From Oscillospiraceae bacterium (GTDB lineage: Bacteria > Bacillota > Clostridia > Oscillospirales > Oscillospiraceae): a stretch of DNA of 24,855 nt. The DNA lies in contig JAFRUW010000250.1 in the NCBI GenBank assembly GCA_017438675.1, forward strand, positions 1 to 24,855. Direction: 5' to 3'. The first letter of the stretch is position 1. Each line of letters opens with the position of its first letter. Position numbers and translations under genes: made by a program. The notes beneath the pieces are model-generated. The model had not been told where the DNA came from and did not search any database. It saw only the letters and a program-made list of their open reading frames with translations. Shown here one piece after another: positions 1,237 to 4,067 of this stretch.

Positions 1237-1268
1237 AAAACAAAAACCGCGCCACGAAAGGCGCGATC
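1237..1268 (-). terminator. Intrinsic terminator upstream of the TM1266-hydG genes
   Basis: Minus strand GAUCGCGCC-UUUCGU-GGCGCG followed by GUUUUUGUUUU. Confidence 0.75.
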
Positions 1269-1414
1269 ATACAGTGGTCAGATGTAAAGGATCGTGTCTT
1301 CCGCGTCAAAACGTATTTTCCGCGTCAGGATCTGTTTTGCGTTATGAGGATCGCCCCGGTCTCCCGAAGTGGGCTGCGCGCACAAGCGGTGGAGCGGGAT
1401 GATCAGCCGTTGTC
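1237..1414 (-). ncRNA. Candidate attenuator/riboswitch-like leader or small RNA (~180 nt)
   Basis: Bounded by a near-consensus sigma-A promoter (1420-1448) and an intrinsic terminator; contains mutually exclusive helices. Start site is inferred from promoter spacing. Confidence 0.45.
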
Positions 1415-1419
1415 CCTGT

Positions 1420-1448
1420 ATTGTACACGGTTTCCCGCGGTTTTGCAA
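1420..1448 (-). promoter_or_regulatory. Sigma-A-type promoter pointing toward TM1266-hydG
   Basis: TTGCAA (1448-1443), 17 bp, TACAAT (1425-1420) on the minus strand. Confidence 0.7.
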
Positions 1449-1489: not shown

Positions 1490-1519
1490 TTTACTTTATA
1501 TTGACAGGCGGATTATAAT
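1490..1519 (+). promoter_or_regulatory. Candidate sigma-A promoter for the MATE-CDF-feo block
   Basis: TTTACT (1490-1495), 18 bp, TATAAT (1514-1519); the -10 lies inside the palindrome TTATAATTATAA (1513-1524). Confidence 0.4.
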
Positions 1520-2954: not shown

Positions 2955-4067
2955 ATGTCAGGTGCGGAACGGGAAAAAAGAATAATACGCACCGGGGTTA
3001 TCGGAATACTTGCGAACATCCTGCTTGCGGCATTTAAGCTGCTGTTCGGCATACTGTCCCGCTCCATTGCCATCACTCTGGACGCCGTCAACAACGCAAG
3101 CGACGTGCTGTCCTCCGCCGTGACGGTGGTGGGGACGAAGATCGCCGGCAGGCCCGCCGACAGGGAGCACCCTATGGGCCACGGCAGAGTGGAGTACATA
3201 AGCGCCCAGATCGTGTCTGCCGTGATCCTGTATGCAGGCATCGCGGCTCTGAGCGAGGCCGTGAGGAAGGCGATAAGCCCGGTAACGCCGGATTATTCGA
3301 CGCTGACCGTCGTAATGCTGGTGATCGCAACAGCAGTAAAGCTGGCGCTGGGGTTTTACGCAAAGGAAACCGGCAAAAAGCTGAATTCCGACTCCCTTGT
3401 GAACTCCGGCAGGGACGCCCTTCTTGACGCGGTGATCTCCGCCACCACACTTATTTCCGCGGTGATATTCAAGGTGTGGGGCCTCAGCCTTGAGGCGTGG
3501 CTGGGCATACTTATCTCCCTTGTCATCATCAAGGCCGGCATCGACATGTTCCGGGACACCGCCAGCAAGCTCACCGGGGAGCGCATCGACAGCGAGCTCT
3601 CCAAATCCATAAAAGAGACGATATGCGCCTCGGAAGGAGTTTTCGGCGCCTATGACCTGCTCTTAAACGGCTACGGCCCCGACAGGTGGATAGGTTCCGT
3701 CAACATCGAGGTGCCGGACACCTGGAGCGCCGACATGATCGACCAGACCTGCCGCAGCATTACGGAGAAGGTGGCCTCCGAATACGGGGTGATCCTGTCC
3801 TCCGTGGGGATATATTCCCGCAACGAGGGGAATCATCTTGCGGCGGATATACGCAGGGCTGTCACCGAAGGGGCCATGAAGGTGGACCACGTCCTTGAGA
3901 TACACGGCTTTATCTGCGACCCGGAAGCGAAAACCATGGGCTTCCACGTGGTCACGGATTTCAGATCAGACAGCGGGGAGATTTTACGGGAGCTTTACGG
4001 TATGACAAAAGCGCTGTACCCCGATTATGAGGCAGAAATACACATTGATTCGGATTATTCCGACTGA
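2955..4067 (+). CDS. Cation diffusion facilitator (CDF) transporter, MntE/FieF-like
   Basis: 370 aa; DAVNNASD (TM2), PADREHPMGHGRVEY, DALLD (TM5); extended C-terminus resembling two CDF cytoplasmic domains; GGAGG RBS. Confidence 0.92.
   Translation: MSGAEREKRIIRTGVIGILANILLAAFKLLFGILSRSIAITLDAVNNASDVLSSAVTVVGTKIAGRPADREHPMGHGRVEYISAQIVSAVILYAGIAALSEAVRKAISPVTPDYSTLTVVMLVIATAVKLALGFYAKETGKKLNSDSLVNSGRDALLDAVISATTLISAVIFKVWGLSLEAWLGILISLVIIKAGIDMFRDTASKLTGERIDSELSKSIKETICASEGVFGAYDLLLNGYGPDRWIGSVNIEVPDTWSADMIDQTCRSITEKVASEYGVILSSVGIYSRNEGNHLAADIRRAVTEGAMKVDHVLEIHGFICDPEAKTMGFHVVTDFRSDSGEILRELYGMTKALYPDYEAEIHIDSDYSD

Follow-up and report, generated by a model that had tools for sequence, protein, structure and literature searches.

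The systems closest to the element described here are PyrR attenuation in the pyr operon of Bacillus subtilis (RF00515), the TRAP regulon of Bacillus, and the small terminator-type riboswitches (preQ1-I; NiCo/czcD). The element is a leader RNA on the minus strand of contig JAFRUW010000250.1 from an Oscillospiraceae bacterium, and this whole stretch of 24,855 nucleotides (nt), hereafter the window, provides all coordinates given below. The leader precedes the gene of a TM1266-family protein followed by hydG, and it combines a conserved hairpin with an antiterminator and an intrinsic terminator. We lean slightly towards the view that it acts as a TM1266-dependent transcription-attenuation OFF switch for TM1266-hydG. 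The RNA family and its proposed protein partner are new, and the logic of sensor hairpin, antiterminator and terminator is of a known kind.

As in the pyr operon, the candidate regulator is encoded within the operon that it would control, stabilization of a leader hairpin is proposed to block an antiterminator so that an intrinsic terminator forms, and several operator copies can occur in one operon (here at loci L189, L237, L164, L175, L193 and L202). The RNA itself is unrelated and does not match RF00515, and whereas PyrR has a phosphoribosyltransferase fold that senses UMP/UTP, TM1266 is NikR-C/ACT-like and is a putative RNA binder. The comparison with TRAP holds insofar as one symmetric oligomer would govern both leader attenuation and Shine-Dalgarno-proximal translation, and would act in trans on unlinked genes, namely hydE, hydG, hydF and aspartase-like genes in nine genomes. 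The TRAP 11-mer ring, however, wraps single-stranded (G/U)AG repeats, whereas the putative target here is a structured, dyad-symmetric hairpin with tandem G.A loops. With the small riboswitches the element shares a covarying fold, a 3' strand common to the antiterminator, and the existence of transcriptional and Shine-Dalgarno versions; unlike them, it is a single hairpin with two identical internal loops, without junction, pseudoknot or Rfam match.

Two further likenesses are partial. The invariant CUGA opposite a GA-rich sequence recalls K-turns and box C/D RNAs and would place tandem sheared G.A pairs alongside a Watson-Crick helix, but there are two dyad-symmetric modules rather than one kink, and a K-turn assignment was rejected since, although the GA tandems are conserved, none of 61 distinct aligned sequences has the 3-nt bulge. 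The fold of TM1266 is that of the metal-binding, oligomerizing C-terminal domain of NikR (template modelling (TM) score of about 0.85), and self-association is predicted. Nevertheless, structural alignments with NikR chains show an identity of about 10-25%, and TM1266, with 80 amino acids and no ribbon-helix-helix domain, cannot work as NikR does; a reading of the protein as a NikR was discarded, as it aligns to the C-terminal domain only.

The conserved hairpin and its distribution

The sensor of the proposed switch is a hairpin of 42 nt, which was missed in the original prediction for this leader, and which is made up as follows.

1332-1291, minus strand: conserved sensor hairpin, 42 nt (50.8 bits with covariance model R1, 46.9 bits with covariance model R2)
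1328-1327/1299-1298, minus strand: helix P0
1326-1325/1301-1300, minus strand: outer tandem G.A
1324-1321/1305-1302, minus strand: helix P1, 4 base pairs (bp)
1320-1319/1307-1306, minus strand: inner tandem G.A
1318-1316/1310-1308, minus strand: helix P2
1315-1311, minus strand: loop

Each strand reads YUGA-N4-GAAR, which gives the hairpin its dyad symmetry, with two CUGA/RAAG tandem-G.A modules flanking a helix of 3-4 bp. In the outer module, CUGA is 98-100% conserved and faces RAAG (AAG 100%); in the inner one, YUGA (UGA 80-95%) faces xAAR (the two A positions 97-98%). The loop is variable, and what is conserved, about 35 nt, forms a single hairpin; neither a multi-helix junction nor a predicted tertiary contact is present. 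The P1 stem changes from CGCG/CGCG in the window to CAUU/GAUG in a genome of the same genus (G001), where the terminator stem is also altered and covaries with that of the window. In the alignment of 65 hits of model R2, which is itself fitted to the covariance model, 8 of the 10 pairs change on both sides, and 91.7% of cells are paired, a share that falls to 26-46% once the partners are slid. Compensatory cells number 115 in this alignment against 33.7 ± 4.7 after shuffling, and none of 500 shuffles reaches 115. The result was repeated on an independent MAFFT seed alignment. Compensatory changes thus support the base pairs of a structured cis-regulatory RNA family. A tandem arrangement was also seen at L210 (about 985-1025), L225, L180 and L164, where a second, divergent hairpin of the form CU(G/A)AG-stem-...-stem-CAAAG stands just upstream and is not picked up by model R2.

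A DNA-level search of 60 relatives with positions 1232-1450 matched the window alone, so that homology is visible only at the level of structure and motif. An exact 15-mer scan of genome contigs gave more than 100 unrelated chance matches and was uninformative. After the DNA-level search had failed to show relatives, the regions upstream of TM1266 orthologues were collected, and two covariance models were used, R1 from 16 sequences and R2 from 34. The block shared with G001 consists of the hairpin, a short linker and the terminator, which in G001 is followed at once by the TM1266 ribosome-binding site. Most of the 25 loci from relatives, and many among 80 further ones, have the same block upstream of TM1266. 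Applied to 100 loci, model R2 produced 65 matches at E<=0.05, covering 12 of 24 relatives' loci and 44 of the 75 further TM1266 loci searched; in these 44, the motif lies upstream of the gene in 39, downstream in 11 and on both sides in 6.

Whole-genome searches gave one match in every genome having any. The 1.49-Mb assembly to which the window belongs has its single R2 match at 1332-1291, also the sole match in a filter-free scan of 700-1560, and no Shine-Dalgarno-overlapping copy was found before hydG in the window (at most 5 bits in the filter-free search). Among the 60 relatives, nine genomes other than the window's own have a match, adjoining TM1266 in all except G018, where the motif precedes hydE-hydG and TM1266 lies on another contig. 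A further 150 genomes of the class yielded 24 with a match at E<=0.001; 22 of these matches adjoin TM1266, hydE, hydG, hydF or an aspartase-like gene, and the other two are false. TM1266 lies within 1.5 kb of 12 of the 24, one more (G161) shows the order motif-hydG-TM1266, and nine, lacking a nearby TM1266, stand directly before hydG, hydE, hydF or an aspartate-ammonia-lyase-like gene. At two such loci (L258 and L269, in G186 and G157), the motif and a terminator precede the lyase-like gene and TM1266 lies elsewhere in the chromosome. Lacrimispora amygdalina, Lutispora saccharofermentans and Phascolarctobacterium succinatutens are carriers available in culture.

No family of Rfam 15 (4227 models, including T-box, SAM, TPP, cobalamin, NiCo, PyrR site and 6S) reached its gathering threshold anywhere in the window, in keeping with the original prediction, in which the leader could be matched by eye to none of the known elements considered, and at E<=10 only chance-level matches appeared over 1000-1620. 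The same collection found nothing but one tRNA in 20 orthologous loci, and nothing in the tandem-type leader of L210. A 6S RNA or other housekeeping small RNA was considered and dismissed, with no RF00013 match in the genome and no Rfam match on the region. Full-text literature searches found no published description of the RNA, nor of TM1266, hydG or hydE in connection with a riboswitch, an RNA motif or attenuation.

Terminator, antiterminator and lineage-specific hairpins

The remaining parts of the leader and the genes behind it are listed below.

1448-1420, minus strand: sigma-70-type promoter-like site, -35 TTGCAA (1448-1443), 17-nt spacer, -10 TACAAT (1425-1420), 9/12 match
1303-1290, minus strand: 3' strand and tail of the sensor hairpin; by pairing with 1268-1255 (5' arm and loop of the terminator) it supplies the 5' half of the conserved-type antiterminator
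1268-1237, minus strand: intrinsic terminator, stem 1268-1260/1253-1245, loop 1259-1254, U-run 1246-1237
1031-789, minus strand: TM1266-family gene, 80 amino acids, first gene downstream of the leader, ATG at 1031
734-3, minus strand: hydG, 5' part (TIGR03955, 451.9 bits, profile positions 1-227), running off the contig

The promoter had been proposed from the window alone, and it gains from G001, which has identical -35 and -10 hexamers and an identical 17-nt spacer upstream of its own motif; transcription is predicted from the sequence to start near 1413. As claimed earlier, the terminator lies about 205 nt before TM1266, and a promoter scan of the minus strand between the two (1237-1031) found no second site reaching its threshold. 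The terminator itself is as first described: a stem of 9 bp (6 of them G-C) and a 6-nt loop stand directly before the U-run, reading UUUUUGUUUU, with a folding energy of -15.8 kcal/mol, and this GC-rich stem-loop is that of an intrinsic (Rho-independent) terminator. A leader peptide was rejected, as the sole minus-strand open reading frame here (1278-1448) begins upstream of the predicted transcription start.

Across 54 distinct leaders, the tail from RAAG onwards is a complement of the 5' arm and loop of the terminator at its own locus. When tails were swapped between these leaders, the mean energy of the tail-arm duplex went from -11.4 kcal/mol (native) to -8.4 kcal/mol, and none of 5000 permutations reached the native value. 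The complementarity is therefore locus-specific, and the RAAG segment is common to hairpin and antiterminator. The minimum-free-energy fold of the nascent transcript of the window forms the same 1303-1290/1268-1255 pairing, and together with the swap test it identifies a terminator/antiterminator leader switch. The window's own duplex has -8.8 kcal/mol with the 14-nt tail of the swap test and -12.4 kcal/mol when 1302-1288 is paired with 1270-1254. With calculated energies of -10.9 (hairpin), -12.4 (antiterminator) and -15.8 kcal/mol (terminator), the competing structures have the balance that a switch requires.

Other genomes have a translational form without a terminator, in which the tail leads directly into a Shine-Dalgarno sequence and a start codon, either those of hydG (L237, L189, L187, L216 and others) or those of hydF (L265). 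The Shine-Dalgarno-overlapping copies are the following.

L237, 1464-1504: before hydG
L189, 1464-1504: before hydG
L187, 1474-1514: before hydG
L216, 1447-1485: before hydG
L265, 1501-1542, minus strand: before hydF

Several operons combine a leader with an internal copy, and at the loci named above as having more than one copy, the copies stand before and after TM1266 or the next gene. Closure of the hairpin would favour termination in the first form and block the ribosome in the second, so that both forms point to repression by whatever binds the hairpin. The switch is thus likely to be turned OFF upon binding.

The original prediction had placed the switch further upstream, with a helix (a) at 1404-1349 as anti-antiterminator, pairing of 1357-1349 with 1268-1260 as antiterminator (helix b), and a ligand left unspecified. 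Both helices can indeed be drawn: helix (a) is present in the minimum-free-energy fold, and the 8/9 complementarity of helix (b) is worth -14.3 kcal/mol. Their upstream strands, however, sit in a GC-rich hairpin region of about 72 nt that has no counterpart in the closest relative, G001, where merely 19 nt separate the -10 box from the motif. In the nascent-transcript fold, helix (a) stays closed and leaves 1357-1349 unavailable, and the terminator 5' arm pairs with 1303-1290 instead. The hairpin at 1404-1349 has no further copy in its own genome and is not a second copy of the motif (at most 5 bits in the filter-free model search of 700-1560), and the leader as a whole folds no better than its shuffles (z = -1.16). 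The earlier claim of an undescribed cis-acting leader for TM1266-hydG holds in its terminator/antiterminator logic, and no Rfam family is matched; the three-helix arrangement then drawn lacks support.

Two features are specific to the lineage of the window.

1404-1349, minus strand: GC-rich hairpin (helix a), -23.8 kcal/mol, holding the strand 1357-1349; not part of the conserved switch
1236-1072, no strand assigned: long near-perfect hairpin of 165 nt, an inverted repeat resembling a miniature inverted-repeat transposable element or repetitive extragenic palindrome, -89.1 kcal/mol, between the U-run and the TM1266 ribosome-binding site

The 165-nt element matches itself on the opposite strand and is absent from G001. 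Parts of it, 40-80 nt long, recur three times in the assembly (79% complete), each time at or close to a contig end (C65, C90 and C278), and no target-site duplication was seen at the element. Its insertion accounts for the gap of about 205 nt between terminator and gene, since in relatives the terminator abuts the TM1266 ribosome-binding site, and it may affect processing of the mRNA. A match to MIR4208 (plus strand, 1074-1235) is an artefact of this long inverted repeat. Both features are kept in a related strain represented in a public DNA run (X1), in which two extra bases in the U-run are the sole difference from the window over 1038-1345, whereas the flanks and the upstream hairpin's loops show changes. 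In a metatranscriptome run (X15), a contig of 166 nt spans about 1234-1397, stopping where the U-run ends, and TM1266 is covered by another contig; these contigs are compatible with, and suggestive of, an accumulating terminated leader.

TM1266 as candidate effector

The protein encoded behind the leader is a clear member of its family (TIGR03959, 112.6 bits against a cut-off of 60.8; PF21699, 109.1 bits; E = 1.5e-12 to the protein of known structure 2NZC). A crystal structure of TM1266 has reportedly been available since 2006, under the label of a putative regulator. To our knowledge, no function has been demonstrated for the family, whose annotation is putative only. In the Protein Data Bank (PDB), the unannotated 2NZC is the sole TM1266 entry, and full-text literature searches found nothing on TM1266 function beyond annotation. 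In Thermotoga neapolitana, TM1266 is induced together with hydE and hydG (PMC7039931), and in a metal-exposure proteome of C. sporogenes it is among the metal-responsive proteins (PMC12917699).

The distribution of the motif links it to this protein. TM1266 is encoded in 30 of the 31 motif-bearing genomes other than the window's own, and in 8 of the 9 genomes of the 150-genome set with an unlinked motif it is found elsewhere. It is also more widespread than HydG, occurring in 25 as against 15 of 61 genomes (relatives). In two near-complete genomes in which no HydG was found (G005 and G056), the motif and TM1266 head an SsuA/TauA-type ATP-binding cassette (ABC) importer made up of binding protein, permease and ATPase, and in G025 (L006) a gene for a FecCD-type permease follows TM1266.

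L282 (G005, contig C48), 121-2925: motif, TM1266 and ABC importer
L283 (G056, contig C20), 132-3028: motif, TM1266 and ABC importer

With such cargo unrelated to the hyd genes, the RNA follows TM1266 rather than the maturases, and the family name "iron-only hydrogenase system regulator" may be too narrow. The structure model of TM1266 (predicted local distance difference test, 96.8) finds 2NZC as its best structural match and then chains of the NikR C-terminal domain, and its 80 amino acids are too few to accommodate a DNA-binding domain. The predicted homodimer scores 0.48, against 0.00 for the best of three controls. Of 30 solved homodimers 20 attained this mark, as did 1 of 23 single chains; the pass may reflect memorization of 2NZC by the predictor. 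By analogy with PyrR and TRAP, a symmetric oligomer, a dyad-symmetric RNA and the lack of a DNA-binding domain would fit an RNA-binding attenuation protein.

In the mechanism that we propose, transcription would begin near 1413 and the hairpin 1332-1291 would form, its two CUGA/RAAG tandem-G.A modules symmetric about the 4-bp helix. Alternatively, the 3' strand and tail (1303-1290) would pair with 1268-1255, and this antiterminator would allow read-through. An effector, presumably an oligomer of TM1266, maybe loaded with a metal or a metabolite, would keep the hairpin closed and RAAG unavailable, the antiterminator would fail, the terminator hairpin (1268-1245) and its U-run would form, and transcription would stop before TM1266-hydG. 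With the TM1266 gene behind the leader, the outcome would be negative autoregulation, and in other genomes a hairpin overlapping the Shine-Dalgarno sequence of hydG or hydF would bring translational repression. That TM1266 is the effector of the hairpin we rate at a little better than an even chance. We see about equal chances for and against the broader proposal that TM1266 represents a new class of ligand-sensing, RNA-binding attenuation proteins, which would recognize the dyad-symmetric double tandem-G.A hairpin and act in cis and in trans on termination and translation of H-cluster maturases and, in some genomes, of sulfonate-type or FecCD-type ABC importers.

Several observations weigh against TM1266-dependent attenuation. 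The motif is present in G147, a genome 97% complete in which no TM1266 was found, and several TM1266 loci lack the motif (L002, L003). TM1266 occurs in 13 of the 15 HydG genomes, so nearly always that co-occurrence there cannot discriminate. We know of no NikR-C/ACT-like domain that binds RNA, and riboswitches likewise occur in transcriptional and Shine-Dalgarno-overlapping forms. In the window itself, the antiterminator carries two A.C mismatches, the 165-nt insertion may have weakened the link between leader and TM1266, and the Logan contigs of the public runs cannot prove transcript ends. Some of this would suit a riboswitch, in which the hairpin would bind its ligand directly (Fe2+ or another metal at the tandem G.A loops, or a metabolite of sulfur or maturation) and TM1266 would merely be co-regulated. 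The conserved, covarying fold, the expression platform common to hairpin and antiterminator, the two output forms found in many riboswitch classes and the G147 motif would all be expected of it, and the hyd maturases, the FecCD-type permease and the SsuA-type transporter could share a metal or sulfur signal. Yet what is conserved is limited to about 35 nt folded into one hairpin, its two internal loops identical and symmetric and its end loop variable, with neither junction nor predicted tertiary contact; no riboswitch family of Rfam 15 is matched, and the motif travels with TM1266 to unrelated cargo and is accompanied by it in all motif-bearing genomes but one. We regard a riboswitch as rather unlikely, and a TM1266-dependent attenuator is preferred because the motif follows TM1266 to sulfonate-type transporters and the NikR-C-like fold comes without a DNA-binding domain.

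The other two readings concern the window more narrowly. A stand-alone RNA of about 175 nt, from the promoter at 1448-1420 to a terminator end near 1237, could have been uncoupled by the 165-nt insertion, with TM1266-hydG transcribed from elsewhere. The promoter and strong terminator do bound a discrete unit, the X15 contig over the leader (about 1234-1397) is separate from that over TM1266, and the intervening 205 nt or so include the -89 kcal/mol hairpin. Terminated leaders accumulate with any attenuator, however, contig ends are not transcript ends, the stretch 1237-1031 holds no second promoter-like site on the minus strand, and in G001, as in dozens of genomes besides, the terminator stands immediately before the ribosome-binding site, the orthologous leaders running straight into the gene. 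This alternative, which the original prediction had also raised as a small RNA, appears very unlikely. We give even less credence to that prediction's own arrangement of helices (a) and (b), in which a ligand would open the upstream helix. Besides the reality of both pairings, the related strain of run X1 speaks for it, having no changes in the arms of helix (a) although loops and flanks vary. Against it, the region lacks a counterpart in G001 and a homologue in the 60 relatives or its own genome, helix (a) at -23.8 kcal/mol outcompetes (b) and is closed in the nascent fold, and the sole conserved element is left out.

We found no paper on how bacteria time the synthesis of HydE, HydF and HydG, and a conserved RNA operator before exactly these maturase genes offers a mechanism of regulation specific enough to be tested. 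A function is thereby proposed for the TM1266 family as well; if TM1266 does bind RNA, it would bring a new fold to the few known RNA-binding attenuation proteins. The element could help to find hydrogenase-maturation regulons in metagenomes of gut, rumen and digesters, and may in time serve to control hydrogenase expression in Clostridia that produce H2.

Neighbouring genes

In the window, hydG follows directly after TM1266, whereas in G001 the order is TM1266-hydE-hydG, and the hydE that lies between the two in that genome is not at the window locus. The hydG gene is split by the assembly, its C-terminal part being found on contig C190 of the same genome (4-345). On the other side of the leader, a MATE efflux gene diverges on the plus strand (1558-2904), preceded by a promoter-like site TTTACT-18-TATAAT (10/12 match; 1490-1519, plus strand) and followed by a CDF cation-efflux gene (2955-4067, plus strand).

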